Sequence record: OQ223306
Source: Shigella phage S2_02
Reading direction: 5' to 3' (one strand)
Length of the DNA: 50,597 nucleotides
In this document: positions 1,066-49,062 of the stretch, piece after piece
Layout: each line of letters opens with the position of its first letter
Numbering within the stretch: position 1 is the first letter of the stretch
The notes under the pieces: generated by a model
What the model was told of the DNA's origin: nothing
Databases searched by the model: none
What the model saw: only the letters and a program-made list of their open reading frames with translations
Translations under genes and position numbers: made by a program

Positions 1066-1401
1066 GTGACTATGTTTACTAATATGTTTGATCCGAAGGT
1101 GATGGAAAGACGAAAACTGGAAAGCGAGAAGCAGGAAGAGAACATCAAGAAGATAGCTGATGCCGTGACTGGTAAAAAATTAATCAAAGTAAACCTTAAT
1201 ACCATTGGCCCAGCTTACGACTTAAGAGGTCTTGGCAAGAAAGAGGCGTCAGTGAAGGTTCTTAGACTTATTCACGAAATCAAGAATCAGTACAAGATAG
1301 CCCTCAAGATGAAGAGCCTTAATGTTCCGCATTGCGAGCTTGAGAACATTACTGAGCCGGACTGGTGGGAAATCACCGACGTCGAGTTTACCGTAGAATA
1401 G
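1066..1401 (+). CDS. hypothetical protein (111 aa)
   Basis: ORF track; SD AAGGAGAGG before ATG; stop TAG lies inside conserved box 1397-1417. Confidence 0.6.
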   Translation: MTMFTNMFDPKVMERRKLESEKQEENIKKIADAVTGKKLIKVNLNTIGPAYDLRGLGKKEASVKVLRLIHEIKNQYKIALKMKSLNVPHCELENITEPDWWEITDVEFTVE

Positions 1402-1441
1402 CACTTTTTGTTAAAACCGGATCGGGATAACGCGGTATAGT
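1397..1441 (+). promoter_or_regulatory. Early promoter module: 21-bp box (AATAGCACTTTTTGTTAAAAC) + 18 bp + TATAGT
   Basis: Box 1397-1417, -10-like TATAGT 1436-1441 embedded in hairpin GGGATAAC/GTTATCCC; CATCGA start-like motif follows; gene ATG at 1473. Confidence 0.5.
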
Positions 1442-1472
1442 TATCCCATCGACAACGAATGAGGAAACGAAG

Positions 1473-1667
1473 ATGGAAACGAAAATTGACGTAGTGGTTG
1501 TTCAGCGCGATTCAACTCACGAGAAGGGTCTGTTCAAGAAAGGAACCGAAATCACGATCGACCTTGAGGATATGGTTTCGTATCACTCTAGCCTTACCTG
1601 GAATGTTGTGCGCGTAGGTAGCGACTACAAACTCAAAGGCTTTAACACTTACTTTGCGGAGGCTTAA
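1473..1667 (+). CDS. hypothetical protein (64 aa)
   Basis: ORF track; SD GAGGAAACG; about 25 nt downstream of predicted start of module 1397-1441. Confidence 0.55.
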   Translation: METKIDVVVVQRDSTHEKGLFKKGTEITIDLEDMVSYHSSLTWNVVRVGSDYKLKGFNTYFAEA

Positions 1668-1669
1668 TC

Positions 1670-2140
1670 ATGGCGACAATTACCGTATTCCTGGCTAAAG
1701 ATGAGATTGATGGCGAAATGTCATTCTTCGCGTTTGAGCACAAAACCGGATCGCACTGGCACACTTACAGCCATTACACGGTTATCTCAATCGAAGCGTA
1801 CGACGGCGAACTGCTCACTGATAAACTGAGTAATTTCATTGAAGCCGTTAAAGCTAGCGGCGGCTGCGAGTGGAAGGAAGATCACGAAGTTATGCGAATG
1901 TTTGAGATGGTCAATCCGGTTCGCCTTGAGTCGTTCGAGCTTGATGCTAATGTGACTATCAAGGTGAGAAAGTCGGGTGAGTTATTGCCAGGGATGCGTG
2001 TGCTGACTGGTTACTCTGGCCGTAAGGTGTGGCGCACTGTATCCAAGATTCGCCAGCGCTCGGCAACATGCTATAGCGTATTCTTTGATGATGGTTGGAA
2101 TATGATGTCCGGTAGTGAGGTAAAGTATCTCACCAAATAG
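1670..2140 (+). CDS. hypothetical protein (156 aa)
   Basis: ORF track; GAGG SD; stop TAG inside box 2136-2156. Confidence 0.6.
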   Translation: MATITVFLAKDEIDGEMSFFAFEHKTGSHWHTYSHYTVISIEAYDGELLTDKLSNFIEAVKASGGCEWKEDHEVMRMFEMVNPVRLESFELDANVTIKVRKSGELLPGMRVLTGYSGRKVWRTVSKIRQRSATCYSVFFDDGWNMMSGSEVKYLTK

Positions 2141-2180
2141 CACGAATTGCTAAAACCGGATCGGGGTATCTTGCTATAGT
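2136..2180 (+). promoter_or_regulatory. Early promoter module: box AATAGCACGAATTGCTAAAAC + 18 bp + TATAGT
   Basis: Box 2136-2156; TATAGT 2175-2180 in hairpin GGGGTA/TACCCC; CATCGA follows; gene at 2219. Confidence 0.5.
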
Positions 2181-2218
2181 TACCCCATCGAGACGAGATA
2201 CCAATCAGAGGATTCACC

Positions 2219-2449
2219 ATGTCAATCGTAAAAAACCAGCAAGCCATCGATTCAACCAATAACAACCGCTTTGCTATTTTCATCACTCGCGACAACAAGC
2301 GTTTTGCGGTCAAGGTAGTACCGGGTGGATACAATACATACATGGAAGATAACGGAAAATGGGTTCGGTGTGACAACCTCTCAAACTTCCTGGTCTGGAA
2401 TGCAGAACTCCAGGGATTTGATGATATCAGCACTTTAATTGAGGAGTAA
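2219..2449 (+). CDS. hypothetical protein (76 aa)
   Basis: ORF track; SD CAGAGGA in conserved CCAATCAGAGGA context. Confidence 0.55.
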   Translation: MSIVKNQQAIDSTNNNRFAIFITRDNKRFAVKVVPGGYNTYMEDNGKWVRCDNLSNFLVWNAELQGFDDISTLIEE

Positions 2450-2454
2450 TAATC

Positions 2455-2682
2455 ATGCCACGTTACAGCAACCTAACTCAACTGACCCGCGTTAACGGGC
2501 ACATGATTCCAGCAAAATCCACTCACTACGCTATTGGCGCAAAACACGGAGTCTATTTCAAGTGGCGCGGTCAATGGAACTTCACGGCGGTGAGTAATTT
2601 CTACATGCGCGTTCCAGGTGACGACCCGCAATCGGTAGTCGAGAACTCAATCGGCGACCACAAGATCGAGGTACTGAAATGA
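2455..2682 (+). CDS. hypothetical protein (75 aa)
   Basis: ORF track; SD GAGGAG. Confidence 0.55.
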   Translation: MPRYSNLTQLTRVNGHMIPAKSTHYAIGAKHGVYFKWRGQWNFTAVSNFYMRVPGDDPQSVVENSIGDHKIEVLK

Positions 2683-2789
2683 ACTTCAACACGATTGCAT
2701 TATGGTCTGCCGTCTGGTTCTTCTGCATGGGTCACGCCATTGTTGGGATCGTAATCATGTTACTACTGTGTGCCGGAGCGTTTGAATGA
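2679..2789 (+). CDS. small hydrophobic peptide (36 aa), putative membrane micro-protein
   Basis: ATGA overlap with upstream stop; hydrophobic translation MNFNTIALWSAVWFFCMGHAIVGIVIMLLLCAGAFE; below ORF-track size cutoff. Confidence 0.3.
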   Translation: MNFNTIALWSAVWFFCMGHAIVGIVIMLLLCAGAFE

Positions 2790-2959
2790 TGCGCATTCTA
2801 ATTTGCATGATGGCGGCAGTCGCCATAACTATCCTGGTAGTGTCCGGCTGCGGAGAGGTCAAAGAGAGATGCCATGAAACCGGAAACCAGGTTACTACTT
2901 TCGTGATGGTTGGAAACGTATTGCTACCAATCACATCAAATGAAATCACTTGCGAATAA
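2786..2959 (+). CDS. putative small lipoprotein (57 aa)
   Basis: ATGA overlap with previous micro-ORF; N-terminal signal-like segment with lipobox-like VVSGC; stop TAA falls inside box variant 2955-2975. Confidence 0.4.
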   Translation: MMRILICMMAAVAITILVVSGCGEVKERCHETGNQVTTFVMVGNVLLPITSNEITCE

Positions 2960-2999
2960 CACTTTTTGTTAAAACTCAATTCCGGGGTTGCGATATAGT
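2955..2999 (+). promoter_or_regulatory. Early promoter module (variant box AATAACACTTTTTGTTAAAAC + 18 bp + TATAGT) with no sizeable ORF downstream
   Basis: Box shows symmetric half-site change TAACA/TGTTA; TATAGT 2994-2999; only a 24-codon ORF (3069-3143) before next module. Confidence 0.45.
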
Positions 3000-3139
3000 T
3001 ACCCCATCGACAACAACCTGGTCTGCGTCAGCAATGAGCATCTCAAGGCTGTAGGATTCACTGGCGGTATGCATAAAGAGGATTTGTGCTTCGTTCTCGA
3101 AGAAATGCACGGTTACTATCCTGAGTGCGAGTTAGTTTA

Positions 3140-3184
3140 CTAAGCACGAATTGTTAAAAGGGGATTTGTCCTGACTGGTATAAT
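3140..3184 (+). promoter_or_regulatory. Early promoter module: box CTAAGCACGAATTGTTAAAAG + 18 bp + TATAAT
   Basis: TATAAT 3179-3184 in hairpin GGGGATT/AATCCCC; box contains stop TAA of 24-codon ORF; gene at 3215. Confidence 0.5.
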
Positions 3185-3214
3185 CCCCACATCAACCACT
3201 AAGAGGAAATCATT

Positions 3215-3700
3215 ATGTTGAAATTAAACGAGATTAAATTCCCTGTAGTTTTTAACACTATTAGCTGCGGAAAAATAACCTGCCATAGCAAAGATCGCGC
3301 AACTGACTCATCACTTAATGAGTGTCACCCGTCTATTATTTGCAACTTGATTGATTTACACAATAAGCATAATCCTGACAATATCTCATCACTCCCTTAT
3401 TACGTTGAGTATTTTGGTTCTGGCTGGAAAACTGGTCGAGCCATCTTTCATAGCGCAAAGCCAGAAATCAAGCCAATGCTACAGTGTACTCAGATCGAGA
3501 ACATGCCATTGAGCGCCACGATAAAAGGCGTTCAGATTAGCGATGAATCATGGATCGAGATTACCGCCACGCCTAAAACTATTGAGGTACATGATGATGT
3601 GGTGATTCTCCTGTTGCATTACGGCAGCTTTAAGCACAAGACTGTATCAGGAGAAATCAGCATTAAGCGCGGAACGCTTGTACGCTACGAGGTGAAATAA
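3215..3700 (+). CDS. hypothetical protein (161 aa)
   Basis: ORF track; SD AAGAGGAAA. Confidence 0.6.
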   Translation: MLKLNEIKFPVVFNTISCGKITCHSKDRATDSSLNECHPSIICNLIDLHNKHNPDNISSLPYYVEYFGSGWKTGRAIFHSAKPEIKPMLQCTQIENMPLSATIKGVQISDESWIEITATPKTIEVHDDVVILLLHYGSFKHKTVSGEISIKRGTLVRYEVK

Positions 3701-3762
3701 TGAGCAACTGGTATAACGAACATGTAATGCAGTTTTACCGCAATCGCATCAAGAAAGTTTTA

Positions 3763-3807
3763 AATAGCACGAATTGCTAAACCTTCCGCAAGGCCATTTG
3801 ATATAGT
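3763..3807 (+). promoter_or_regulatory. Early promoter module: box AATAGCACGAATTGCTAAACC + 18 bp + TATAGT
   Basis: TATAGT 3802-3807 in hairpin AAGGCCA/TGGCCTT; predicted start about 3814 supports ATG 3848 as gene start. Confidence 0.5.
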
Positions 3808-3847
3808 GGCCTTATTGAAGCATGGCAACCAATCAGAGGAATCAGCT

Positions 3848-4147
3848 ATGAAAATCAGATTAACCAGCAACTACTTTAACCGTGAATCTTTCAAACAATA
3901 CATAATCACAGACGGAATGAATCCTGGCATCATCCTTGATGTGTCCTACAACATTGGCGACGTTATGTTTGTATCAGCAACTGAGCTTGCAAAGTACGCA
4001 AAGCCAGAACATTGTCACCTGGCAGAGCCTCACTTGATCGATGGAAAGGTTACAGATTACGCATTCACCAAAGGTGAGTATGAAATCGTGAGATCTGGAC
4101 CTTTCAGCTTCTGGAACAAACTTAAATCAGGGGAGTTATTCAAATGA
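3848..4147 (+). CDS. hypothetical protein (99 aa)
   Basis: ORF-track frame (track start is GTG 3806); ATG 3848 has SD CAGAGGA and lies downstream of predicted start of module 3763-3807. Confidence 0.55.
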   Translation: MKIRLTSNYFNRESFKQYIITDGMNPGIILDVSYNIGDVMFVSATELAKYAKPEHCHLAEPHLIDGKVTDYAFTKGEYEIVRSGPFSFWNKLKSGELFK

Positions 4148-4431
4148 GCAAAACTCATAAGTTAAAAATTGCCCCGATACATTTCATTGGTGTAATGAAC
4201 GGAGCCAAAACGGCAGAGTTCCGCATCAATGACCGCAACTTCCAGGTTGGTGATATCCTTGAGCTACGCGAGTTCGATCGTGACGAGTTTACCGGGTGGG
4301 AAGTTCACGCCAGGGTGTCCGATGTTACAGACGTGACGCCATACATCAATCGCGGTTATGACGAGCAAGAATGCGACTTCACGCAATACGTGATGTTATC
4401 AATCAAGCCTTACAGGAAGGTTAGACCATGA
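4144..4431 (+). CDS. putative ASCH/PUA-like (DUF3850-like) domain protein (95 aa)
   Basis: ORF track; N-terminal pattern KLKIAPIHF...GAKTAEFRINDRNFQVGDILELRE recalls ASCH-type small phage proteins (from memory, unverified). Confidence 0.4.
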   Translation: MSKTHKLKIAPIHFIGVMNGAKTAEFRINDRNFQVGDILELREFDRDEFTGWEVHARVSDVTDVTPYINRGYDEQECDFTQYVMLSIKPYRKVRP

Positions 4432-5066
4432 AATTTGAGTGCGTATCAAGTAGCGGATCTGGTTTTAAGTGGGGAAAAACTTACAAAGGTGTTCGCGTAA
4501 ATGATGACAGCTTCATCATTACTGATGAGAACGATTGCAACGTGAACGTTGTACGGCGTCACGAATATCAGGAAATTTTCCTGCCTTATGGCGGTAGCTC
4601 AAAATATATCTTCCATCGAATCGTGGATGGTGTTAAATTTAAAGACGTAATCGAAGCAATCAACCAACTGCATAATAAAGAGGTCAAATTTATGAAATTC
4701 GAATGTATCAGTGATAACACCAAAAAATTTACCGTTGGCAAAATCTACGACGTGCCTACTGAGCACGCAAAGCACACTGTAGCACTGACCGACGACACGG
4801 GTCGCCACCGCATTGCAACCGTAACGCACAACTGTGAAGGTCTTCGCTGGAATAGCGGCGGAACTAAGTTCGCAACGTTCGGCAAGAAGCGCAAGCGTAC
4901 TTTCTGCGTTAATGGAAAGGTTACAGCGAACAAGATCCACAACGTCAAGCCGTCAGAAGTTGACCGTAAGCCAGCGACGAAGTTTGAAGAAAAGGCAGAT
5001 TTGTCTGGTCTGGCTATCGCTCTTGTTCTCCTGGTTGCTTCGATTTCGCTGCTATTCATCATGTAA
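4428..5066 (+). CDS. membrane-anchored protein with internally duplicated N-terminal domain (212 aa)
   Basis: ORF track; two segments each starting MKFEC(V/I)S; C-terminal hydrophobic helix LSGLAIALVLLVASISLLFIM. Confidence 0.6.
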   Translation: MKFECVSSSGSGFKWGKTYKGVRVNDDSFIITDENDCNVNVVRRHEYQEIFLPYGGSSKYIFHRIVDGVKFKDVIEAINQLHNKEVKFMKFECISDNTKKFTVGKIYDVPTEHAKHTVALTDDTGRHRIATVTHNCEGLRWNSGGTKFATFGKKRKRTFCVNGKVTANKIHNVKPSEVDRKPATKFEEKADLSGLAIALVLLVASISLLFIM

Positions 5067-5073
5067 TGCTAAT

Positions 5074-5107
5074 GGGGAATCGGCTCTGAACGGTTCCCCT
5101 TTCTTTT
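5074..5107 (+). terminator. Rho-independent terminator
   Basis: GGGGAA...TTCCCC hairpin followed by TTTCTTTT directly after stop of 4428..5066. Confidence 0.6.
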
Positions 5108-5214
5108 GGAGAAAACACTATGCCAGACTTTTCTAATTGGAATAACGAGCCGCCATCATTTCAGGAGTTGCTATTTTGCCTCCTGATCCTGACACTATCT
5201 CTTAAGGGTGTTTT

Positions 5215-5433
5215 ATGGCTACTATCATGACAGCAGAAGATGCAGCACGCGAAGCAGTGGAAGGAATGCGCCCAAATAGCTCCAGAATCGCCCACTACTA
5301 CAAATTTGAGGTGTCGGCAGTGCAATTGGTCCATGAAATTTTAAGGCTCCCACAAGTCGATTCAGCGCGCGTGGTGACGTGCTTAAAAAATTATTTTTGC
5401 ATCACTATTAAAACGAATAGCACGAATTGCTAA
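5215..5433 (+). CDS. hypothetical protein (72 aa)
   Basis: ORF track; weak SD; C-terminus NSTNC and stop are encoded by box 5416-5436; an alternative 36-codon hydrophobic ORF 5120-5230 has a better SD. Confidence 0.4.
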   Translation: MATIMTAEDAAREAVEGMRPNSSRIAHYYKFEVSAVQLVHEILRLPQVDSARVVTCLKNYFCITIKTNSTNC

Positions 5434-5460
5434 AACTTGCTCAAGGGCATTTGTTAGAAT
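5416..5460 (+). promoter_or_regulatory. Early promoter module: box AATAGCACGAATTGCTAAAAC + 18 bp + TGtTAGAAT
   Basis: -10-like TAGAAT 5455-5460 in hairpin AAGGGCAT/ATGCCCTT; gene at 5501. Confidence 0.5.
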
Positions 5461-5500
5461 GCCCTTCGTTGAGTTAAGCAACTAATCAGAGGAATAAATC

Positions 5501-6034
5501 ATGGATAAAATCACAATTTGGGGCCAGACAATCAACCTGTTTCTCGGCACTCGCCGCGTGGCAATCTTTGACTTCGACGGAACACTGAGTGACGGCTCAA
5601 AACGTCTTCACCTGCTACCGACGAAAGATTTGCACTTAACGGAAAGCTGGTCTGAGTTCAACCGCGCGGCAATATTTGACAATCCTATACGTAGTACGAT
5701 TGATGTGATGAACTCCATGTTTGCAGCTGGGTATCATGTGATCATTTTAACCGGGCGAAGCGATGAGGTGCGTTACGCATCTGAGTTATGGCTTAAGCAT
5801 CACGGCGCGCGATATGATTACTTAATCATGAGGCCGCATACCGACAACCGCAAAGACACGGTAATGAAAGAAGAGGCAGTGCGCGCTATCGGCATTGAGA
5901 ACATCCTGGCGGCTTGGGAAGACTCACCGCAAATTATTCCATTATTCCGGTCGCTTGGGATAACCACTTACGCTGTAGTTGACTATGGCGATAAAGTCCA
6001 CGATCATTTAAAATCTCACGGGGTAGAGAAATGA
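5501..6034 (+). CDS. HAD-superfamily phosphatase-like protein (177 aa)
   Basis: ORF track; N-terminal IFDFDGTLSD (DxDGT) motif and downstream ILTGR motif typical of HAD phosphatases. Confidence 0.65.
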   Translation: MDKITIWGQTINLFLGTRRVAIFDFDGTLSDGSKRLHLLPTKDLHLTESWSEFNRAAIFDNPIRSTIDVMNSMFAAGYHVIILTGRSDEVRYASELWLKHHGARYDYLIMRPHTDNRKDTVMKEEAVRAIGIENILAAWEDSPQIIPLFRSLGITTYAVVDYGDKVHDHLKSHGVEK

Positions 6035-6141
6035 ACCTATACGAATTTATTGCAGAACATCCGGTATTGACGGTTATCATCCTGCTAATCATCAATCACA
6101 CTATCATCAATGTAGCAAAATTATTTTTAGGGAGATACTGA
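6031..6141 (+). CDS. small hydrophobic peptide (36 aa)
   Basis: ATGA overlap with phosphatase stop; translation MNLYEFIAEHPVLTVIILLIINHTIINVAKLFLGRY; ends 1 nt before kinase ATG. Confidence 0.3.
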   Translation: MNLYEFIAEHPVLTVIILLIINHTIINVAKLFLGRY

Positions 6142-6142
6142 C

Positions 6143-6715
6143 ATGAAAACAGCTATCGTTTTAAACGGCGCGCCTGGAGCGGGAAAAGACACTATCGGAT
6201 GCATCCTGGCTGACACTTACGATCACGTAGCCTTGCGCAGCTTCAAAGCGCCAATGTTTGAGATTGCCCGGGCAATCCTGGGTGAAGCTAACTACGAGTA
6301 TTTCATGTTCTTGTATGAGGACCGTCGATATAAAGAAGAGCCAGCATCCATCCTGAACGGTAAAAGCCCACGCCAGTTTATGATCTGGATTAGCGAAGAA
6401 GTCATCAAGCCGCAGTTCGGAAATCGCTTCTTCGGTATGCGAGCGGAAAGCAAGGTGAAAGAGTCGCACTCCCTTTCGGTATTTACTGACGGTGGATTCA
6501 AAGATGAGATCTTGCAAATGATTGAAGGCGATATCCAAGTCAAGCTATGCCGCATACATCGCAACGGCTGCAACTTCGATAACGACAGTCGAGATTATAT
6601 CTACCTGGATAATATGATCGGTGTCAACGGTTATCAGGAATGTGACTTCTTCTCTGTCGAAGGTCATCCAGAAATTACCGCTCAGCACATAGCCGCCACG
6701 TTCATCAATAAATAG
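6143..6715 (+). CDS. P-loop nucleotide/nucleoside kinase-like protein (190 aa)
   Basis: ORF track; Walker A GAPGAGKDT at N-terminus; stop TAG inside box 6711-6731. Confidence 0.65.
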   Translation: MKTAIVLNGAPGAGKDTIGCILADTYDHVALRSFKAPMFEIARAILGEANYEYFMFLYEDRRYKEEPASILNGKSPRQFMIWISEEVIKPQFGNRFFGMRAESKVKESHSLSVFTDGGFKDEILQMIEGDIQVKLCRIHRNGCNFDNDSRDYIYLDNMIGVNGYQECDFFSVEGHPEITAQHIAATFINK

Positions 6716-6755
6716 CACGAATTGCTAAAACGTCGATGGGGTGATTTGATATAGT
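6711..6755 (+). promoter_or_regulatory. Early promoter module: box AATAGCACGAATTGCTAAAAC + 18 bp + TATAGT
   Basis: TATAGT 6750-6755; flanking 9-bp stem CGATGGGGT/ACCTCATCG has one G-T (G.U) pair; gene at 6788. Confidence 0.5.
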
Positions 6756-6787
6756 TACCTCATCGACAACGAAGAGAGAAAATCGAA

Positions 6788-8492: not shown

Positions 8493-8501
8493 TAAATACT
8501 A

Positions 8502-8524
8502 ACCCGCTTCGGCGGGTTTTTTTA
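8502..8524 (+). terminator. Rho-independent terminator closing the rightward early region
   Basis: CCCGC-TTCG-GCGGG hairpin followed by T7. Confidence 0.7.
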
Positions 8525-8535: not shown

Positions 8536-8561
8536 TGGTAAAATAACACTAAATGTTAAAC
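8536..8561 (+). promoter_or_regulatory. Putative late promoter (extended -10 TGgTAAAAT) overlapped by box copy AATAACACTAAATGTTAAAC
   Basis: TGGTAAAAT 8536-8544; box 8542-8561 spans predicted start and abuts TerS SD. Confidence 0.4.
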
Positions 8562-8576
8562 AAAGAGGATGGATTT

Positions 8577-14995: not shown

Positions 14996-15763
14996 ATGGC
15001 TTACGAAAATTTAATGTTGCGCCCAGCGTGTCCGGGAAATCTTTCTGATACTTCAACCTACAATATTGATGGCGCTTGCGTGGCTCAAGGTGACATTGAG
15101 TTCGGCGCGGCGGTTCAGGTTGTCGGCATCGTTGATGGTGTAAAAGTCGTCAAAGTACTTTCTGATGGCGGGACTCCTTACGGTATCGCTTTCCGTTCTC
15201 AATATGAACACCTGAGCGGTAAAATTCTCGACGGCGAAGTTTGCAACGTCGTTTCTCACGGTCGCATGTGGGCGCTTACTTCTCTTGATGAGGCTCCCGG
15301 CTTGTTCTCAAAGTTGCAGTTTGGATCTGGTGGAGTTGTTACTGGTGGGTCTGGTTCCGCAGGATGGACCTTTGCTGGCGGCTTTGTTAAGCATGAAGAT
15401 GGCTACATTATTGAGGTTCAGGTGAAACAAAATGCTTTCATTGTTCCACCGCCGCCGCCCCCTGTCGTTCTTGTTGAATCCGCTACAATCACCACTGACA
15501 AGGAAAGCCCTCAGCCAAACAACGTTACGATCCAGTGTGTAGCTAATGTTATTCCAGCTAATGCAACTGATAAGACTGGCAAGTGGTCAATAGACGCTAC
15601 CAATATCGCTACTATCGATCCTGACTCAGGTCTTGTAACTCCTGCTGGTGGAGAATCGGTCGGTGATTTCAATATCACATGGACGGCTAACGATGCCAGC
15701 AAGACGACGGCAACCATTGCTTATCGCGTAGAAGCAGTGCCAGAGCCAGAGGTTGATGCATAA
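14996..15763 (+). CDS. capsid-associated protein, paralog B, with poly-Pro linker and Ig-like C-terminal domain (255 aa)
   Basis: ORF track; N-terminus paralogous to 14458..14934; PPPPPP linker; C-terminal beta-rich segment resembling Big_2-type Ig domain. Confidence 0.5.
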   Translation: MAYENLMLRPACPGNLSDTSTYNIDGACVAQGDIEFGAAVQVVGIVDGVKVVKVLSDGGTPYGIAFRSQYEHLSGKILDGEVCNVVSHGRMWALTSLDEAPGLFSKLQFGSGGVVTGGSGSAGWTFAGGFVKHEDGYIIEVQVKQNAFIVPPPPPPVVLVESATITTDKESPQPNNVTIQCVANVIPANATDKTGKWSIDATNIATIDPDSGLVTPAGGESVGDFNITWTANDASKTTATIAYRVEAVPEPEVDA

Positions 15764-15775
15764 CATAAAAACACT

Positions 15776-15803
15776 TTGACGCTTTAACAAAAAGTGCTAT
15801 TAT
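15776..15803 (+). promoter_or_regulatory. Putative sigma70-type promoter for major capsid gene (TTGACG-16-TATTAT) with box copy in the spacer
   Basis: TTGACG 15776-15781, TATTAT 15798-15803; reverse-orientation box 15781-15801 fills the spacer. Confidence 0.45.
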
Positions 15804-19510: not shown

Positions 19511-19565
19511 CTGTAAAATCATCCTATCAACTTTATTCAATTAACTTTTAACAAAAAGTGCTATC
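19491..19565 (+). promoter_or_regulatory. Putative promoter for tail chaperone (TTGCGC-17-TAAAAT) with box copy in 5' UTR
   Basis: -35 TTGCGC 19491-19496 inside hairpin, -10 TAAAAT 19514-19519, reverse-orientation box 19545-19565 just before SD. Confidence 0.4.
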
Positions 19566-31042: not shown

Positions 31043-32107
31043 ATGTTCCAGGTATTCACATCAAGTCAGCTTTCTAATGACGAGTATCATAGCAACGAAG
31101 GTTGGGCGGCAGAGTATGTAAGCGGTTCGAGCCTTGCAGAAATTTATCAGACTTGCCCGGCTAACTGGCGATTCAAGAAGAACGAGACTACTAAAGCGCT
31201 GGAGTTCGGCACTCAGTCGCACACTAACTTTGAGAGTCGAGATCTGTTTACTGCAACGTATGCGCGTTGTCCTGCTCCGTCAGAGTTTAAAGATCTTATT
31301 ACTTCGCAAACGGCACTGGCAGCAAAATTAAAATCTTTTGGCCTGAAAGGTACATCCGGTAAGCAGTACCCTGACCTCATCAAAATGATGGTTGATTGCG
31401 GTGAAGATCTCAATGTTCAATATCTTATTGAACTGATTGCTGAAGCTGAGGCGCGCGCTGAAGGAAAGCAACTGGTTGACGCTGATAAATATGATGCCTG
31501 CATGAAGATGAGGGCCATTCTTGAGCAAAACCCAGATCATGAATCGTGCATCAATAGCGAAACTGCGCAGCGTGAGATCTCAATTTTCGGTGAGATATCC
31601 GGCGTCAAGGTTAAGGTTCGACTTGACCATTTGGACTACAAAGAGAATGTACCAGGTCGTGTACTGACTGGTTATGATGAGAATGGTGATCCGGTATTTG
31701 AAGACGTAATTTTCCCGGAAGCACTGATTATCACAGATTTCAAAACTACGATGAGCGCCAACCCGTTAGAGTTCCCGAGACTGGCATACAATCACGGCTA
31801 TTACCTGAAGATGGCATTGCAGCATGACCTGCTACGTCGCGCAATCCAGGCTGGCGCTTTTGAAGGAAACTTCCCGGAAGATATTCCGATCGTAGTTCGA
31901 TTGCTTGCGCAGGAGAAAAAAGAGCCTTATATCGCACTGGCTTACCGTATGACTATGGAGCAAATCAGGATCGGTCGTAACCAGTACATTAGCGTAGTCC
32001 ACACTTACAAGGCTTGCTCTGAAATGGATGTTTGGCCTGGGTACGCTGGCGACGCAAGCGAGATCGAACTTGAAACGCCATCATGGGTGCGTTACCAAAA
32101 TAAGTAA
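31043..32107 (+). CDS. putative recombination exonuclease (PD-(D/E)XK-type) (354 aa)
   Basis: ORF track; motif region IITDFKTT...YNHGYYLKMALQ resembles D..E.K nuclease core; adjacent to Erf and SSB. Confidence 0.55.
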   Translation: MFQVFTSSQLSNDEYHSNEGWAAEYVSGSSLAEIYQTCPANWRFKKNETTKALEFGTQSHTNFESRDLFTATYARCPAPSEFKDLITSQTALAAKLKSFGLKGTSGKQYPDLIKMMVDCGEDLNVQYLIELIAEAEARAEGKQLVDADKYDACMKMRAILEQNPDHESCINSETAQREISIFGEISGVKVKVRLDHLDYKENVPGRVLTGYDENGDPVFEDVIFPEALIITDFKTTMSANPLEFPRLAYNHGYYLKMALQHDLLRRAIQAGAFEGNFPEDIPIVVRLLAQEKKEPYIALAYRMTMEQIRIGRNQYISVVHTYKACSEMDVWPGYAGDASEIELETPSWVRYQNK

Positions 32108-32115
32108 ACGGCACA

Positions 32116-32150
32116 AATAGCTAAACAAATAATTAATGAGGTGTTATAAT
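32116..32150 (+). promoter_or_regulatory. Degenerate box + hairpin carrying TATAAT upstream of erf
   Basis: AATAGCTAAAC at 32116-32126; hairpin ATGAGGTG-ttataatg-CACCTCAT with TATAAT 32145-32150. Confidence 0.4.
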
Positions 32151-32181
32151 GCACCTCATACACCAATCAGGAGAAGTTAAG

Positions 32182-35121: not shown

Positions 35122-35174
35122 AATAGCACGAATTGCTAAGCACAGATTTTATCATTGTGCCACCTGCCTTGCAA
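35122..35174 (-). promoter_or_regulatory. Putative sigma70 promoter for tail-fibre gene (TTGCAA-17-TAAAAT, minus strand) with box copy at the start site
   Basis: Minus-strand -35 at 35169-35174, -10 at 35146-35151; box AATAGCACGAATTGCTAAG 35122-35140 between start site and SD AAGGAG. Confidence 0.45.
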
Positions 35175-36138: not shown

Positions 36139-36150
36139 TTCCAGATCTCC

Positions 36151-36217
36151 AAAATAAAAAACGCGTAGAAGGATGTTAACCCGCTACGCGTCGTTTGTTT
36201 TAACTAAAAATGCTATT
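36151..36217 (-). promoter_or_regulatory. Minus-strand module: box + 18 bp + TAACAT overlapping hairpin/T-run terminator, upstream of primase
   Basis: Box (revcomp AATAGCATTTTTAGTTAAAAC) 36197-36217 contains stop of upstream gene; -10-like at 36173-36178; hairpin ACGCGTAG/CTACGCGT 36161-36191 then U-run. Confidence 0.45.
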
Positions 36218-36652
36218 GGTCGTTCCGATATCTTCCTTCTTCACGACGCGCATAAATTTCTTGTTCTTGCATCTCTTCTCTAGGCACTTGCCGTTACCGT
36301 CAAACTTGAGGTCGAATCGCAACCATGCGGCGCGGAATCCTTTACAACCCTGACGACGGTAAGCACGATGTGCAGCTTCAGCACCTTGCCACGAAATCAT
36401 GTTGCGCTCCTTCCATCCCTGCACGGTCTGATTGCTAACTTTCAGAGCCTTTGCGCAAGCCGCCGGACCACCATAATATTCAATAAGAGCATCCAATCGC
36501 GCTCTCAGTCCTGCGCGCGTTTCTTCTTTATGGATATAAAATCCGCAGCGCTGGCGAGGCTTTTTATCTTTACCGCGTCGTGTTCCGTTGTTACCATTGA
36601 TGTGACGTTTATCGATTTCACCAGTAGACTCTGCGATACGTTTCATATTCAT
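36200..36652 (-). CDS. putative helix-turn-helix DNA-binding protein (150 aa); candidate regulator
   Basis: ORF-track frame 36200..36724; ATG 36652 has SD AGGAG; basic N-terminus and HTH-like segment PAACAKALKVSNQTVQGWKER; function unverified. Confidence 0.5.
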   Translation of the reverse strand: MNMKRIAESTGEIDKRHINGNNGTRRGKDKKPRQRCGFYIHKEETRAGLRARLDALIEYYGGPAACAKALKVSNQTVQGWKERNMISWQGAEAAHRAYRRQGCKGFRAAWLRFDLKFDGNGKCLEKRCKNKKFMRVVKKEDIGTTNSIFS

Positions 36653-36663: not shown

Positions 36664-36732
36664 TGTAGCACTTTTTGCTAAAAACGTTTACTGTATGCCG
36701 TGTATTATATCGTAAACGATACAACGATTCAA
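36664..36732. promoter_or_regulatory. Overlapping divergent promoters: box + 18 bp + TATTAT (plus, helicase) and TTGAAT-17-TATAAT (minus, HTH gene)
   Basis: Box 36664-36684; plus -10 at 36703-36708; minus -35 at 36727-36732 and -10 at 36704-36709; box lies in 5' UTR of the minus transcript. Confidence 0.45.
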
Positions 36733-36746
36733 AGGATTAAATAGCC

Positions 36747-39242: not shown

Positions 39243-39662
39243 ATGGCTGTACTAGATAAGGGTGATTATTTAGAATATTATGAACGAGATCCCAGCGATA
39301 CTCGAAAGGAGGTTGCTCATCAGATTGATAGCTTCCAGTGGCTAAAGCACAATCATCCGGAATTGCTTGCTTGGCATAGCGTTAATGAAAATAAGAAGAC
39401 AAAAGTTACCGCGATGATTGACCAGCAGTCAGGATTACTTAAGGGCGTATCAGACTTCGTTATCCTGATTGGTGTAAACTCACGTTACCCGTTCGCAGCT
39501 ATCGAACTCAAACGGGTTAATAAGTCCGGCAAAGGAAAAGCGTCACCAGTCAGCGATAAGCAAATTGAGTTTCTCAAAAAGGTTCGTGAACGCGGTGGAT
39601 TCTCTGCCGTTGCATACGGATTTGAGCAATTCAAGCTGGCAATATGCGATTTAACTAAATAG
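39243..39662 (+). CDS. putative VRR-NUC / PD-(D/E)XK nuclease (139 aa)
   Basis: ORF-track frame 39213..39662; ATG 39243 follows upstream stop; GVSDFVIL ... AIELKRVN resembles D...E.K nuclease motif. Confidence 0.5.
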   Translation: MAVLDKGDYLEYYERDPSDTRKEVAHQIDSFQWLKHNHPELLAWHSVNENKKTKVTAMIDQQSGLLKGVSDFVILIGVNSRYPFAAIELKRVNKSGKGKASPVSDKQIEFLKKVRERGGFSAVAYGFEQFKLAICDLTK

Positions 39663-39702
39663 CACTTTTTGCCAAACACGCCGGAATGGAATCTGGCATT
39701 AT
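39658..39702 (+). promoter_or_regulatory. Early-type promoter module upstream of dam (box + 18 bp + CATTAT)
   Basis: Box AATAGCACTTTTTGCCAAACA 39658-39678 includes upstream stop TAG; weak -10-like at 39697-39702. Confidence 0.4.
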
Positions 39703-39729
39703 TACCTCACCAAAACGAGAGGAATAAAA

Positions 39730-40443: not shown

Positions 40444-40691
40444 TGAACGAGAAAATGACTCCGGTTAAGTTAACTGATCAAGGTTTATGGCTACTTTATC
40501 GAGCTACATGCTGCGAAATTATGGAGCAAAACGGATTGACTCAGGATGTTATTGGTTGCGATCTGTGGGAGTTCACTAGTTCTCTTGATATGTCTTTTGA
40601 TGAGATAAAAAATGAATACATTGAGAATTGGCCCTCAATCATCCAAAAAGACGTAGAAGAACTTTCTTCTGAGATAATTACGCAGCACTAA
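40443..40691 (+). CDS. hypothetical protein (82 aa)
   Basis: ORF-track frame 40398..40691; ATG 40443 overlaps dam stop (TAATG) with SD GAGGAAAG. Confidence 0.5.
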   Translation: MNEKMTPVKLTDQGLWLLYRATCCEIMEQNGLTQDVIGCDLWEFTSSLDMSFDEIKNEYIENWPSIIQKDVEELSSEIITQH

Positions 40692-40725
40692 TTGCTAAAA
40701 CTACCCGGCGAAAGTCGGGTATAGT
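40681..40725 (+). promoter_or_regulatory. Early-type promoter module: box CGCAGCACTAATTGCTAAAAC + 18 bp + TATAGT
   Basis: TATAGT 40720-40725 after hairpin ACCCG/CGGGT; CATCGA follows; box contains upstream stop TAA. Confidence 0.5.
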
Positions 40726-40757
40726 TATTTCATCGAAACGAAATGAGGAATCAGAGG

Positions 40758-41527: not shown

Positions 41528-42679
41528 ATGTCACAAGCTAAAATCACCACCGAGCAACTTATTGAAGAGCGCATGAGCGGCCTAACACTTCGCGAAATCG
41601 CGGAAAAATACGGTATGCACATTCGCACTGTTGAAGCGCGACATGCCAAGCTGGCAAAAGAAGGTCATTTTCACGGTAACGAGCATGTTGCTAAAAACGT
41701 GCCCGAGGGATTCATGGTAAAAGGCACGTCGACGATGATTCGCGGCGATGGGACCGAGGTAGTGCGCTGGGTAAAAACCGATCAGGACCGTGAGAAGATT
41801 GCGGCAATGATGGAAGCAGCGCGTATTGCATTCTGTGAAGACCTGCCGAGAGCGAAGCCAACCGAGCTACTAACCTCGCAAGGGCTTACGACAGCGATGG
41901 GTAAGCTGGCACTCTATCCGGTATTCGATCTTCATATTGGCGCGCTTGCTCACAAGCATGAATGCGGAGAGAACTACTCTACCGACGTAGCTGAAAAAGT
42001 GCTTGGCGACTTCTTCAATTACGCGATCGATATTGCCCCGAACGCAGAGAAAGCTGTTCTGTTAATCGGCGGTGACTTCCTTCACTCGGACGGTCTTGAT
42101 GCTGTTACCCCGGCAAGCGGTCACGTTCTGGATCAGGATTCACGATATGCAAAATTGGTGCATGTGGCTATTCGATCGGTGCGTCGCGCTATCGACAAAA
42201 TGCTACTGAAGCACAAAGAAGTCGAAGTCCAGGTTATCGAAGGGAACCACGACCAGGCCGGGATGATTTGGCTACGCGCTGCAATGGCTGCATACTATGA
42301 AGACGAGCCGCGAGTATTCGTTGACGTCAGTCCTATGATTCTGCATAAGACTCGCTGGGGAAATACCTTACTGGGATACACTCACGGTCACACGATGAAA
42401 AAGGCAGACACGCGACTTGCAGCGATGGCGGCAGACTTCCGCGCAGACTTTGGAGAAAGCAAATACGTGTATACTCACAGTGGGCACTGGCATCATCAGA
42501 CAATCACTGAACACTCACTCGGTATTGATGAAGTTCACGGTCAGCTTGGGGCGAAAGACGCATATGCGGCGCGCGGCGGGTGGCGCTCATATCGCCAGGC
42601 GGCGGTAATCATTTACGATAAGCAGTTTGGTGAAATCGGTCGATTCATCTATCGTCCAGAAATGACAGGATCGCACTAA
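41528..42679 (+). CDS. calcineurin-like metallophosphoesterase with N-terminal HTH-like domain (383 aa)
   Basis: ORF track; motifs DLHIG, GGDFLHSDG, GNHD, GHTM, HSGHWHH; N-terminal LTLREIAEKYGMHIRTV HTH-like segment. Confidence 0.65.
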   Translation: MSQAKITTEQLIEERMSGLTLREIAEKYGMHIRTVEARHAKLAKEGHFHGNEHVAKNVPEGFMVKGTSTMIRGDGTEVVRWVKTDQDREKIAAMMEAARIAFCEDLPRAKPTELLTSQGLTTAMGKLALYPVFDLHIGALAHKHECGENYSTDVAEKVLGDFFNYAIDIAPNAEKAVLLIGGDFLHSDGLDAVTPASGHVLDQDSRYAKLVHVAIRSVRRAIDKMLLKHKEVEVQVIEGNHDQAGMIWLRAAMAAYYEDEPRVFVDVSPMILHKTRWGNTLLGYTHGHTMKKADTRLAAMAADFRADFGESKYVYTHSGHWHHQTITEHSLGIDEVHGQLGAKDAYAARGGWRSYRQAAVIIYDKQFGEIGRFIYRPEMTGSH

Positions 42680-42713
42680 TTACTAAAAATACCCGAAGGG
42701 ATTCGGGTATAGT
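42669..42713 (+). promoter_or_regulatory. Early-type promoter module: degenerate box + 18 bp + TATAGT
   Basis: Box GATCGCACTAATTACTAAAAA contains upstream stop; TATAGT 42708-42713 after hairpin ACCCGAA/TTCGGGT. Confidence 0.45.
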
Positions 42714-42742
42714 AACCACATCGAAAACAAAGAGGATATATC

Positions 42743-46244: not shown

Positions 46245-46273
46245 CACAATAAACTCCTTAGTTGACGGTGTGA

Positions 46274-46318
46274 ATGATACACCGCCAATGGTACACGCGT
46301 TTTGCAAAAAGTGCTATT
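46274..46318 (-). promoter_or_regulatory. Leftward early promoter module (box + 18 bp + TATCAT on minus strand)
   Basis: Box (revcomp AATAGCACTTTTTGCAAAACG) 46298-46318; minus-strand -10 at 46274-46279. Confidence 0.45.
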
Positions 46319-46737: not shown

Positions 46738-46773
46738 TTCGTTAACTCCTGATTGGTTATCTTGAATAAGGTC

Positions 46774-46818
46774 ACTTTATCAAATGACCTTACGGCAACA
46801 TTAACAAATCGTGCTATT
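46774..46818 (-). promoter_or_regulatory. Leftward early promoter module (box + 18 bp + TAAAGT)
   Basis: Box 46798-46818; -10 inside hairpin AAGGTCA/TGACCTT (46768-46792), which differs from the 3791-3817 hairpin by compensatory changes. Confidence 0.5.
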
Positions 46819-47255: not shown

Positions 47256-47287
47256 TTTTAATTCCTTTGTTTGTTTGGTGTGGGAGT

Positions 47288-47333
47288 AATATACCTTACT
47301 CCCTGCTGATTGTCTTTAGCTATTCGTGCTATC
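47288..47333 (-). promoter_or_regulatory. Leftward early promoter module (box + 19 bp + TATATT)
   Basis: Box 47313-47333; -10 within hairpin GGGAGTAA/TTACTCCC (47282-47303). Confidence 0.45.
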
Positions 47334-48373: not shown

Positions 48374-48404
48374 GATTCTTTCCTCGTTCTCTGTTGGTGG
48401 GATG

Positions 48405-48449
48405 ACTATACCAGCCATCCCGGATGCGCGTTTAGCAAAAAGTGCTATT
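48405..48449 (-). promoter_or_regulatory. Leftward early promoter module (box + 18 bp + TATAGT)
   Basis: Box 48429-48449; minus-strand TATAGT at 48405-48410; CATCC start-like motif. Confidence 0.5.
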
Positions 48450-48609
48450 CGATAACTTCCTTTGGAACGACCTTGATCTCATCAAAGAAGTTAGTCCTGT
48501 CATTCTCAGTGAGATTCTTGATCTCGTTAGCTTTGCTCTCGGTCGAGCATATCTCGATCAGTTCGTCACCTTCATAGTAGATGGTTCCAACCACGCAATA
48601 TACGATCAT
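48445..48609 (-). CDS. hypothetical small protein (54 aa)
   Basis: ATGA overlap with stop of 48606..48986; stop TAG inside box 48429-48449; below ORF-track cutoff. Confidence 0.35.
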   Translation of the reverse strand: MIVYCVVGTIYYEGDELIEICSTESKANEIKNLTENDRTNFFDEIKVVPKEVIE

Positions 48610-48986
48610 AATTTTTCCTCCAGCACTTCACGGATGCGGTTGATTGCATCCAACTTGTCGCAATCCCAACGAGTCGTTCCGTTATCCGGTCGCCCTTCAA
48701 ACGCGAGACTCACCTCTTCGAGAAGGTTGTCAATGATAGCCTCCTTCTCGTCGCCGTCCATCTTTCCGAACTCAACCGATCCGACGTAGCGATTGATATA
48801 AGCAATCATGCTTTTATGCTCTTCAATGGTAAAGATATCCGTGATACTGATCCCGGTATCGCGTTGAGTGATAATTACTCGATTGCTCGGGCGAATGATG
48901 CCGCCCACCAGGCGATTGCAAATCTCAACGGTAAAACCTTTCTCATTTGCGCGGTCAATTGCTGCCTGAAGTTTTGAATCTGTCAT
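48606..48986 (-). CDS. hypothetical protein (126 aa)
   Basis: ORF track; SD AATCAGGAGAA. Confidence 0.55.
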   Translation of the reverse strand: MTDSKLQAAIDRANEKGFTVEICNRLVGGIIRPSNRVIITQRDTGISITDIFTIEEHKSMIAYINRYVGSVEFGKMDGDEKEAIIDNLLEEVSLAFEGRPDNGTTRWDCDKLDAINRIREVLEEKL

Positions 48987-49016
48987 CTGGTGATTCTCCT
49001 GATTGGTTTATGTGTT

Positions 49017-49062
49017 CAATATACCCCGATTACCTTCGGGGCGTTTAGCAATTCGTGCTGTT
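49017..49062 (-). promoter_or_regulatory. Leftward box copy with hairpin; -10 weak
   Basis: Box (revcomp AACAGCACGAATTGCTAAACG) 49042-49062 with hairpin CCCCGA/TCGGGG; no good -10 at the expected spacing. Confidence 0.35.

Follow-up and report, generated by a model that had tools for sequence, protein, structure and literature searches.

Shigella phage S2_02 carries, in front of many of its genes, a module of about 77 bp that combines a conserved 21-bp box, a -10-like hexamer at a fixed distance from the box and, between the box and the predicted start site of transcription, a hairpin of variable sequence. The window analyzed here is the whole stretch of sequence record OQ223306 (50,597 nucleotides), which is the complete genome of this T1-like siphophage (Drexlerviridae, Tunavirus-like). 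The interpretation preferred here, with a probability of roughly 60%, is that the module is a composite cassette, the Drexlerviridae counterpart of the PeSLs (promoter-early stem-loops) of T4-type phages: a host sigma-70 promoter, in which the box replaces the -35 element, combined with an RNA hairpin. That the modules are promoters, whatever else they may be, is considered clearly probable. The 21-bp repeat has already been published; what is new is the locked promoter geometry lacking a -35, the separable sense-strand hairpin in a fixed register, and the role as a PeSL-like cassette.

According to this interpretation, the promoter part would be recognized by the host sigma-70 polymerase through a TAnnnT -10 with a C-A start 7 nt further on, with no -35 and with the box at -51 to -31. 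The box would be an upstream recognition element that makes such promoters usable by host RNA polymerase, giving basal activity without phage proteins. At some copies it would in addition be an operator for the phage regulator Pir, which would activate transcription when the box is at -41 and repress it where a canonical promoter lies upstream of the box or has to compete with it, an example being the pir gene itself. The hairpin, encoded in the spacer and discriminator, would act on read-through transcripts of the upstream gene, as an attenuator, a terminator or a stabilizer of the 3′ end, and transcripts beginning at +1 would be without the complete hairpin. The modules may also be patches of homology where gene cassettes come and go.

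T1-like phages rank with the coliphages and Klebsiella phages that are isolated most commonly, and the transcription program of the T1-like group is essentially unmapped. The anatomy of the modules accounts for some 25 transcription units with almost no canonical promoters, and corrects several annotations of start codons and terminators. A box-locked promoter without a -35, a separable hairpin and cassette junctions together make the function of the repeat directly testable. The idea of portable, self-insulated gene cassettes would also be extended from T4-type myoviruses to an unrelated family of siphoviruses, which is of use in phage engineering and in understanding the swaps of accessory and anti-defence genes.

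The 21-bp Box

The pattern AATAGCAC-N4-TGCTAAAAC has 19 matches in S2_02 at three or fewer mismatches, against 0.16 expected, and a scan of the window with a position weight matrix (threshold: 15 bits or more) gives 28 matches. One of the 28 is a duplicate: bases 1–127 are identical to bases 50471–50597 (127 bp, 0 mismatches; unit length 50,470 bp), an overlap left by the assembly of a genome that is circularly permuted and terminally redundant. Because the ends of the window overlap, box 46–66 and box 50516–50536 are one copy. There are thus ~27 copies, with a consensus that can also be written AATAGCAC-NNN-TTGYTAAAAC, and the estimate of about 25 in an initial annotation of the window, made from the letters alone, was sound. 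That annotation missed the published repeat, the sense-strand hairpin, the junctions of cassette recombination and the PeSL analogue.

Two sets of genomes were compared. The first consists of S2_02, T1, TLS, Rtp and Klebsiella phage KLPN1 (101 boxes). The second was enlarged with contigs from IMG/VR to 411 unique boxes from ~30 relatives, of which 313 have a -10-like hexamer at 17–19 bp and are counted as modules. The early region of S2_02 is ~92% identical to Escherichia phage vB_EcoS_SH2 and Shigella phage Shfl1. The same box motif is found in T1, TLS, Rtp, KLPN1 and Vibrio phage Vc1; it is identical across phages of Escherichia, Klebsiella and Vibrio, and in four subfamilies.

Within the box, positions G5 C6 A7 C8 and G14 are invariant, and the core TAGCA-N5-TGCTA has its half-sites one helical turn apart. 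The box is asymmetric: opposite the invariant G5 stands position 15, its partner, with C in 58% of cases and T in 38%. The central triplet (positions 9–11) is of the TTT, GAA or TAA type, and is coupled to position 15 (T15 in 68% of TTT-type boxes, C15 in 81% of GAA-type boxes), which could reflect either lineages of boxes or functional subclasses. At orthologous modules the triplet type has been kept for the helicase module only (TTT in all six lineages), which is a weak pattern.

The box has a fixed place between two genes. Its distance from the start codon, counted from the start of the box, has a median of 77 nt (interquartile range 75–79), the exceptions being orphan and antisense copies. 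The stop codon of the upstream open reading frame (ORF) lies in the box or a few nucleotides away in 60 of 80 modules: as TAG at box position 3 in 26 of the 60, as TAA at position 16 in 10, and within a few nucleotides in the rest, much as had been described initially.

A re-annotation of phage TLS in 2024 by Kropinski, Misra and colleagues reports a 21-nt repeat, DR1–DR18, with the consensus aaATAGCACnnnTTGnTAAAA (PMC11447400). There are 18 intergenic copies in TLS, co-oriented with transcription and ~76 nt from start codons, and T1, Rtp and Rogue1 have the repeat as well. In TLS just three canonical sigma-70 promoters were found, and the authors of the paper list the function of the repeat as an open question, with a stoperator, an enhancer site or an UP element as ideas (PMC11447400). 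The S2_02 box belongs to this family, having the same sequence, the same rule of orientation, the same distance to start codons (~76–77 nt) and the same A/T/G subtypes of the triplet. The TLS paper gives the repeat alone, without the 18-bp lock, the missing -35, the start-site motif, the hairpin or the cassette junctions.

The Probable Promoter Geometry

The distance between box and hexamer is the first of these. Across the five genomes, the best -10-like hexamer is 17–19 bp from the box in 82 of 101 cases (69 at exactly 18 bp), compared with 7.5% at random positions, and in the enlarged set it is exactly 18 bp past the box in 283 of 411. The claim of a fixed 18-bp spacing is therefore borne out by a motif scan of relatives. 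The modules of S2_02 mostly have 18 bp, with 17 or 19 in a few, and the same spacing to a TAnnnT hexamer is seen in six lineages, the Vibrio phage included. Hexamers include TATAGT, TATAAT, TATTAT, TATGAT, CATAAT and similar sequences, in which A2 and T6 are nearly invariant and a preceding TGn is enriched. Seven nucleotides past the hexamer there is a C-A at -1/+1, typically within CATCGA (the sequence named initially) or CATCAA, and ATCGA, ATCAA or ATTGA is found at the predicted start in 166 of 313 modules. The start site (+1) is placed throughout from the hexamer and the C-A motif, and with an 18-bp spacer simple arithmetic then makes the box extend from -51 to -31, around a centre at -41, the position proposed at first. 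The CCAATCAGAGGA leader, initially thought to be shared by all modules, does exist, in a subset of 10–28% depending on the type of box; it is one of two leader types, and the AACGA-type leader is commoner.

The absence of a -35 had also been described correctly: the best match to TTGACA at 16–18 bp is just 2–3 of 6 positions in 273 of 313 modules. An extended -10 (TGn, that is TG at -15/-14) is present in 133 of 313 modules (42%), and activity without a -35 is explained by it for that part of the class. TGn is commoner with GAA-type boxes (56% vs 36%, p = 0.002).

Several known elements were considered for the box and its surroundings and rejected. TTGCTA within the box is 22 bp from the hexamer, with no -10-like sequence 17 bp away, and so does not qualify as a -35. 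A sigma-32 reading of CCCCAT in the discriminator has no TTGAAA upstream; this CCCCAT is the 3′ arm of the hairpin followed by CAT. Inspection by eye gave no convincing match in the box to the CRP site TGTGA-N6-TCACA, though cAMP-CRP inhibits three T1 promoters in vitro. Nor is the box an UP element by definition (A/T-only, -59 to -38), given its position at -51 to -31 and its invariant G5 C6 A7 C8 and G14.

The Hairpin between Box and Start Site

The stretch from the box to the start site contains an inverted repeat whose sequence varies, with a minimum free energy of -9.2 kcal/mol compared with -4.2 kcal/mol for shuffled sequences. It takes one of two forms. In geometry A, the hexamer is in the loop, the 3′ arm is in the discriminator and the hairpin ends at -1. 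In geometry B, the hairpin, often with a GAAA tetraloop, ends at the hexamer; some hairpins of this kind have been labeled terminators by the annotators of T1 and TLS.

In part of the modules, the register of the hairpin is locked. Six or more consecutive pairs in the register -24:-1 are found in 30.6% of unselected modules, compared with 1.3% for neighbouring registers and 3.9% for shuffles. Several types of pair occur at each position of this register, and the pairing is 0.586, compared with 0.503 ± 0.008 for shuffled partners and 0.40–0.455 for slid registers; that is, the pairing of the hairpin covaries in a locked register. Selection on the hairpin also acts on the sense strand, whose fold is stabler than that of the antisense strand in 255 modules vs 49 (p about 1e-35), and there are 12 internal G.T pairs vs 0 A.C.

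The strength of the hairpin depends on the gene upstream. Where a co-directional upstream ORF ends in the box it is -10.1 kcal/mol (n = 253), vs -4.8 kcal/mol otherwise (n = 38; p about 1e-10). Operon-first modules (in each of the five genomes, the module that comes first in the leftward direction and the helicase module that diverges from pir) have essentially no hairpin in all of ~12 cases, yet retain box and hexamer. Because it is the hairpin alone that these modules lose, box and hexamer can be seen as a promoter unit at the level of DNA, and the hairpin as an RNA element of the upstream transcript.

This bears on a very different explanation, in which the modules would be intercistronic elements at the level of RNA only: the box, folded as a hairpin, and the variable hairpin would together form a signal for processing, termination or stability, and the hexamer would be a U-tract or a site for RNase. 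Such an explanation would accommodate the selection of the hairpin on the sense strand, its dependence on an upstream gene, the resemblance of geometry-B hairpins plus hexamer to terminators (they are annotated as such in T1 and TLS), and the tolerance of G.U at positions 5 and 15 of the box. It is nevertheless very improbable. Without an upstream transcript only the hairpin is lost, the hexamer has the signature of a -10, its distance from the box is kept whichever geometry the hairpin has, and fragments containing modules show promoter activity (PMC6737242). The box itself is not supported as an RNA hairpin, as there is just G-C/G-U variation at one pair and there are mismatches elsewhere, with little true covariation in the stem; an Rfam scan of the window gave no match.

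What the hairpin would do to the RNA is a separate matter. Five or more T in the 9 nt past the stem are found in geometry B for 35% of hairpins and in geometry A for 4%, and a G/C-rich hairpin with a U-tract, the hallmark of intrinsic terminators, occurs at few modules only, such as 36217(-). Because the U-rich tail is confined to geometry B and a few such cases, geometry A is more likely to be an attenuator or a 3′ stabilizer than an efficient terminator.

Hairpins near start sites recall the promoters of phage N4, and the GCAC-N3-TTGCT of the box recalls the -24/-12 sequence TGGCAC-N5-TTGCW of sigma-54, so that an alternative holoenzyme or a phage polymerase could be imagined. This is scarcely credible. 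The distance from G to C is 10 bp rather than 12, and the essential GG is AG in the box, for which reason the sigma-54 resemblance was rejected. No gene for an RNA polymerase or a sigma factor is reported in TLS (PMC11447400). As for N4-like promoters, the module hairpins have loops of 8–10 nt and no constant position, and operon-first modules are without them.

What Reads the Box

Evidence for promoter activity, and for effects of Pir on it, rests on the literature on T1. Laganenka et al. (2019) fused T1 fragments from -150 to +15 of start codons to the gene for green fluorescent protein (PMC6737242). Two promoters, Pdam and Phol, are activated by Orf23, to which the study gave the name Pir, and two, Ppir and PrecE, are repressed by it; Porf65 does not depend on Pir, its activator being Orf65, a protein that in addition represses Ppir; and Pdam, Ppir and PrecE are active in an E. 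coli cell-free system free of phage (PMC6737242). Inspection of these fragments revealed that Pdam and Porf65 hold full forward modules, the box of Porf65 being perfect and of the GAA type. The Ppir fragment has a reversed box downstream of a canonical promoter, the Phol fragment has the left half of a box only, and the PrecE fragment has a canonical TTGACT-16-TATAAT promoter and no box. Thus, the effects of Pir fit the position of the box at two promoters, contradict it at one, and arise without a full box at two. The four fragments that respond to Pir have a single motif in common, ATAGCA(C/T)T, which makes up the left half of a TTT-type box.

Because of the reporter and cell-free results on fragments that contain modules, box modules can be taken to be active without phage proteins. 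The initial annotation had proposed gene-by-gene early transcription that depends either on a factor binding the box or on RNA polymerase in a modified form. The transcription units are supported, cassette by cassette, in the early, replication and lysis regions; the dependence is not, in view of the phage-free activity of Pdam, the Pir-independence of Porf65 and the presence of TGn in 42% of modules.

Pir is the leading phage-encoded candidate for binding the box. The pir gene of S2_02 (36203–36652, -) is the homolog of T1 orf23 (97% identical) and encodes a regulator with a Cro-type, all-alpha helix-turn-helix (HTH) core in a predicted model (mean predicted local distance difference test score 81). 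Foldseek matches of the model include the Cro proteins of Xfaso-1 and N15 (target TM-score ~0.7, probability 1.0, E-value 0.03). An N-terminal basic segment is invariant and the predicted recognition helix varies. Homologs of Pir are confined to the Drexlerviridae. The gene has a near-consensus sigma-70 promoter at 36704–36732 (-), with TTGAAT (36732–36727), 17 bp and TATAAT (36709–36704), and the box of the helicase module lies between this promoter and the Shine–Dalgarno (SD) sequence of pir. On the other strand is the helicase module (36664–36746, +), with its box at 36664–36684 (of the TTT type in six lineages), TATTAT at 36703–36708 and a GTG start codon at 36747; it is without a hairpin and has no co-directional upstream gene. 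The -10 of pir overlaps the hexamer of the helicase module face to face, so polymerase at either promoter should exclude polymerase at the other. In TLS, the equivalent of the pir promoter (P57) is one of the three canonical promoters. The layout of pir, box and helicase has been kept in six lineages, including Vibrio phage Vc1, and this conserved layout, together with the canonical promoter of pir, supports a regulatory link between Pir and the box.

It is possible, if doubtful, that this link is the whole explanation, and that the modules are activator-dependent class II promoters, the initial proposal in its strong form. The box would then be the operator of Pir, the box promoters would be essentially silent until Pir, bound at -41, recruits RNA polymerase, and the modules would form a delayed-early or middle class. 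The 15-bp inverted-repeat core near -41 and the poor or absent -35 are indeed reminiscent of class II promoters (CRP/FNR, site at -41.5), with T1 Pdam as a box-containing promoter activated by a phage HTH protein. Pir would be made first, from its own promoter, one of the few canonical ones; it has a Cro-type HTH fold, the half-sites of TAGCA-N5-TGCTA are one helical turn apart, the box is in the pir leader in all lineages, Pir activates Pdam and represses Ppir (PMC6737242), and the Pir-responsive fragments share their single motif with the box. Pir and box are also both restricted to the Drexlerviridae, but as both are so confined and the box is invariant, their co-occurrence or co-variation is uninformative as evidence. 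Against this, the perfect GAA-type box of Porf65 ignores Pir and Pdam is active in phage-free extract. The box, unlike class II sites, is asymmetric and has A-tract flanks, and it is invariant despite a strongly divergent predicted recognition helix of Pir (45–58% identity). Moreover, the earliest genes, at both ends of the genome, would have to await a regulator encoded in the middle of it. Orf65 was rejected as a general box factor, being absent from S2_02, Rtp and KLPN1.

The Pir of Vc1 is just 45% identical, while the boxes of Vc1 are unchanged. The invariance of the box over divergent Pir proteins and host genera, along with its asymmetry, suggests a conserved reader, and points equally to RNA polymerase and to a host protein. 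A second tentative alternative, given about as much credence as the class II model, is that the reader is of the host only: the box would either be an unusual upstream element, or a substitute for the -35, contacted by RNA polymerase itself (through the C-terminal domain of its alpha subunit, or region 4 of sigma) or be a site for a host protein such as Lrp, and the phage regulators would act elsewhere. Activity without phage proteins (PMC6737242) is consistent with this, as are the identical box across host genera and four subfamilies and its dependence on orientation and lock to the -10, which are like those of a core promoter element. The TTT-type box contains TTTTT-N3-AAAA, like the core of an UP element (an idea raised by the TLS authors), and the core of the box fits the Lrp consensus YAGHAWATTWTDCTR (PMC5554404) at 11–13 of 15 positions, a count made by hand that serves as a lead only. 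However, the box departs from UP elements in its invariant GCAC and TG, and its tracts are ~8 bp nearer to the promoter than UP subsites. TTGYTA, at 22 bp from the hexamer, is too far away for a -35, and a single isolated site at -41 is not the usual mode of Lrp. No dependence of T1-like phages on a host factor was found in the literature searched, and orphan boxes have no promoter.

The third explanation is that of the TLS authors, stoperators, and it is given little weight. A phage repressor bound at the box, be it Pir or another protein, would block elongating polymerase between genes, and the hexamer would be incidental. Like the stoperators of phage L5, the boxes are many copies of a short, asymmetric, intergenic site oriented with transcription; orphan boxes without a hexamer exist, one of them at the early/late boundary before terS; both Pir and Orf65 repress Ppir, where the box is downstream of the promoter; and T1 has been claimed to be capable of a carrier or lysogen-like state (PMC6737242). 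However, L5 stoperators are placed without relation to promoters and work in lysogens as roadblocks formed by the repressor, whereas the boxes are locked to a -10 in a family that is essentially virulent. A lock of 18 ± 1 bp to the hexamer in ~70–80% of boxes and a fixed 77 nt to start codons would be unexpected for roadblocks. Pdam is activated by Pir rather than repressed, and the box is kept at the starts of operons, where there is nothing upstream to stop.

Within the preferred interpretation of a sigma-70 promoter combined with a hairpin, the reader of the box would be the host polymerase, a host factor or Pir. Several points weigh against this interpretation. No mapping of the 5′ or 3′ ends of transcripts was found in the literature for any T1-like phage, and for that reason both the position of +1 and the function as promoters during infection are predictions. 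The 165-bp reporter fragments could hold other promoters (PMC6737242). About 58% of the promoters have neither a -35 nor TGn and should be very weak for sigma-70 holoenzyme alone, for which the box would have to compensate. The G/C positions that never vary (GCAC, TG) set the box apart from UP elements, and orphan boxes without a hexamer indicate that a box can exist outside a promoter. The link to Pir is mixed, as Porf65 is Pir-independent despite its perfect box and Phol and PrecE respond without a full one. Finally, geometry-A hairpins, so rarely followed by a U-tract (4%), are unlikely to be efficient intrinsic terminators.

A bolder version can be put forward as a speculation that is rather improbable as it stands. 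The box would be a new promoter recognition element that replaces the -35 throughout the family, read by host polymerase in a non-canonical way or via the invariant basic N-terminal arm of Pir instead of its variable HTH. The triplet would set the regulator or temporal class of a cassette; in T1, ATAGCA(C/T)T is found in the fragments that respond to Pir, and the GAA type in the one that does not. Together with the register-locked hairpin ending at -1, it would make a self-insulating “terminate-and-restart” cassette.

Cassette Behavior and Related Systems

When the early regions of S2_02 and T1 are aligned, the breaks in synteny fall inside modules: at 1458/2136, 3013, 5447/5416, 46318 and 48450. 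A cassette specific to S2_02 and absent from T1 (1459–2135) includes a homolog of PF25180, “antiviral trigger Gp54”; this homolog is at 1473–1667 (+; E-value 6e-33) and is followed by a 156-amino acid protein of unknown function. T1 has its orf65 cassette between boxes 4343 and 4863, at the place of the S2_02 module at 5416, and an HNH endonuclease gene inserted at the box that corresponds to 46298–46318. A further S2_02-specific block is at 48451–50270. Because box, start region and leader are repeated across the early, replication and lysis regions, the modules could act as patches of homology for such exchanges.

The closest analogue of the modules is the PeSLs of T4-type phages, small composite promoter/terminator cassettes that mediate insertions and deletions by recombination, described by Arbiol, Comeau and Krisch in 2010 (PMC2839356) and by Comeau et al. 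in 2014 (PMC4122927). PeSLs (PMC2839356) and modules are both small and intergenic (~100 bp or less), with the upstream stop codon first and the SD and start codon last. Both join an early promoter of the host type to a stem-loop that is rich in G/C, contains G-T pairs and lies either between the promoter elements or over the -10. Both are concentrated in regions of small variable genes, and in both cases the indel junctions of close relatives lie in the cassettes. In sequence, however, the two are not homologous. Consensus -35 and -10 elements plus an AT-rich upstream region are features of PeSLs, whereas modules have no -35 and a conserved 21-bp box instead, and the module hairpin, unlike that of PeSLs, sharply prefers a single register. 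PeSLs have been shown to act as terminators and to form mini-circles, which for the modules would be predictions.

Two other promoter classes bear comparison. Modules resemble extended -10 promoters in the TGn of many copies. They resemble T4 middle promoters in that a phage motif with TGCT in the place of the -35, and a TAnnnT -10, often with TGn, define a class. The MotA box is centred at -30, 11–13 bp from the -10, and sigma is appropriated by MotA and AsiA. In contrast, the TTGYTAAAA of the modules ends 19 bp from the hexamer, and no homologs of MotA or AsiA were noted in Pfam and PHROG scans of a few early proteins.

Modules along the S2_02 Genome

All module positions named in the initial annotation, in the early rightward and the replication regions, are real; the eight leftward modules that it counted were placed at the coordinates given below, and one more on the plus strand was found at 32107. 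In the rightward early region, the module at 1397–1472 (+) has its box at 1397–1417, a hairpin at 1424–1447 (GGGATAAC/GTTATCCC), TATAGT at 1436–1441, a predicted +1 at A1448 and a start codon at 1473. The next, 2136–2218 (+), has a box at 2136–2156, a hairpin at 2163–2186, TGc-TATAGT at 2175–2180, a predicted +1 at 2187, the CCAATCAGAGGA leader and a start codon at 2219. The module 2955–3006 (+) has a TAACA..TGTTA variant of the box (2955–2975), a hairpin at 2984–3005, TATAGT at 2994–2999 and a predicted +1 at 3006. It is followed by no clear ORF and no convincing SD and start codon; 2955–3139 is a deletion remnant of T1 gene ST71, with the junction inside the module. Module 3140–3214 (+) has a degenerate box (3140–3160), a hairpin at 3161–3187, TGg-TATAAT at 3179–3184, a predicted +1 at 3191 and a start codon at 3215.

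Further to the right, module 3763–3847 (+) consists of a box at 3763–3783, a hairpin at 3790–3813 (AAGGCCA/TGGCCTT), TGa-TATAGT at 3802–3807 and a predicted +1 at 3814, before a start codon at 3848. The module before the polynucleotide kinase gene (5416–5500, +) has a box at 5416–5436, a hairpin at 5443–5466, TGt-TAGAAT at 5455–5460 and a start codon at 5501. Module 6711–6787 (+) has a box at 6711–6731, a hairpin at 6736–6763 with two G.T pairs, TGa-TATAGT at 6750–6755, a predicted +1 at 6762 and a start codon at 6788.

The additional module at 32107–32181 (+), before the gene for an Erf-like recombinase, has a weak AAA-type box, a 17-bp spacer, TGt-TATAAT at 32145–32150, a hairpin at 32137–32158 and a start codon at 32182. 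The annotated or longest-ORF start of this gene (T1 31484, S2_02 32149) falls within the -10 hexamer; the true start is likely to be ATG 32182, which has an SD and is 75–77 nt from the start of the box. Similarly over-extended starts are found at S2_02 48418, 46307 and 40743.

After pir and before the primase gene is a leftward module (36139–36217, -), with a box at 36217–36197, TAACAT at 36178–36173 in the loop of a terminator hairpin and a GTG at 36138. Its hairpin, ACGCGTAG...CTACGCGT followed by a T-run, is a true terminator; the TLS counterpart is terminator T57. In the replication region proceeding rightward, the module before the dam operon (39658–39729, +), the ortholog of T1 Pdam, has a box at 39658–39678, a hairpin at 39680–39697, TGg-CATTAT at 39697–39702 and ATG 39730. 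Two modules of geometry B follow. The one at 40681–40757 (+) has a box at 40681–40701, a hairpin at 40702–40721 (TACCCGGC-GAAA-GTCGGGTA), the T1 ortholog of which is annotated as a terminator, TATAGT at 40720–40725, a predicted +1 at 40732 and ATG 40758. The other, 42669–42742 (+), has a box at 42669–42689, a hairpin at 42690–42709, TATAGT at 42708–42713, a predicted +1 at 42720 and ATG 42743.

The remaining leftward modules begin with that at 50250–50329 (-), which has a box at 50329–50309, a 19-bp spacer, TATGAT at 50289–50284, no hairpin (there is no upstream gene) and ATG 50249. The product of the gene behind it (50115–50249, -) is a tiny protein with a zinc ribbon like the CXXCXGXG of DnaJ (E-value 1e-6); it also has a PHROG match, a weak one, to the zinc domain of Q-like antiterminators. 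The start of the gene is more likely to be 50249, which has a good SD, than the longest-ORF start at 50288 inside the module hexamer. Module 49397–49479 (-) has a box at 49479–49459, TGg-CATAAT at 49440–49435, a predicted +1 at 49428 and ATG 49396. Module 48987–49062 (-), of geometry B, has a box at 49062–49042, a hairpin at 49041–49024, TATATT at 49023–49018 and ATG 48986. Module 48374–48449 (-), a synteny breakpoint with T1, has a box at 48449–48429, a hairpin at 48421–48399, TGg-TATAGT at 48410–48405 and ATG 48373.

Module 47256–47333 (-) again has a 19-bp spacer, with its box at 47333–47313, a hairpin at 47303–47282, TATATT at 47293–47288 and ATG 47255. It is followed by 46738–46818 (-), with a box at 46818–46798, a hairpin at 46793–46766, TGa-TAAAGT at 46779–46774 and ATG 46737. 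The last, before a DNA helicase gene (46250–46318, -), has a box at 46318–46298, TATCAT at 46279–46274 and a hairpin at 46284–46266.

Orphan and Antisense Boxes

The architecture first described as uniform holds for most modules; the boxes at 8542, 25825, 35122 and 50536 are without a hexamer, and those at 15801 and 19565 are antisense copies in the late region. The orphan box at 50516–50536 (-) is in the non-coding region between the divergent early arms. A near-perfect orphan box at 35122–35142 (+), kept in T1 and Rtp, lies beside a terminator between two minus-strand genes (tail fibre and primase), with no plausible gene downstream.

Of the two antisense copies, that at 19514–19565 (-), after the major tail protein gene, has 18 bp to TGa-TAGGAT and is kept in T1 (18851-); that at 15750–15801 (-), before the major capsid gene, has 18 bp to a weak TATGCA and is kept in T1 (15087-) and TLS (15043-). 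Both may serve as promoters of RNA antisense to the tail and capsid genes. The orphan box at 8542–8562 (+), kept in T1, follows a strong bidirectional terminator (8501–8518) and abuts the SD of terS. It stands at the boundary between early and late genes and could control entry into late transcription.

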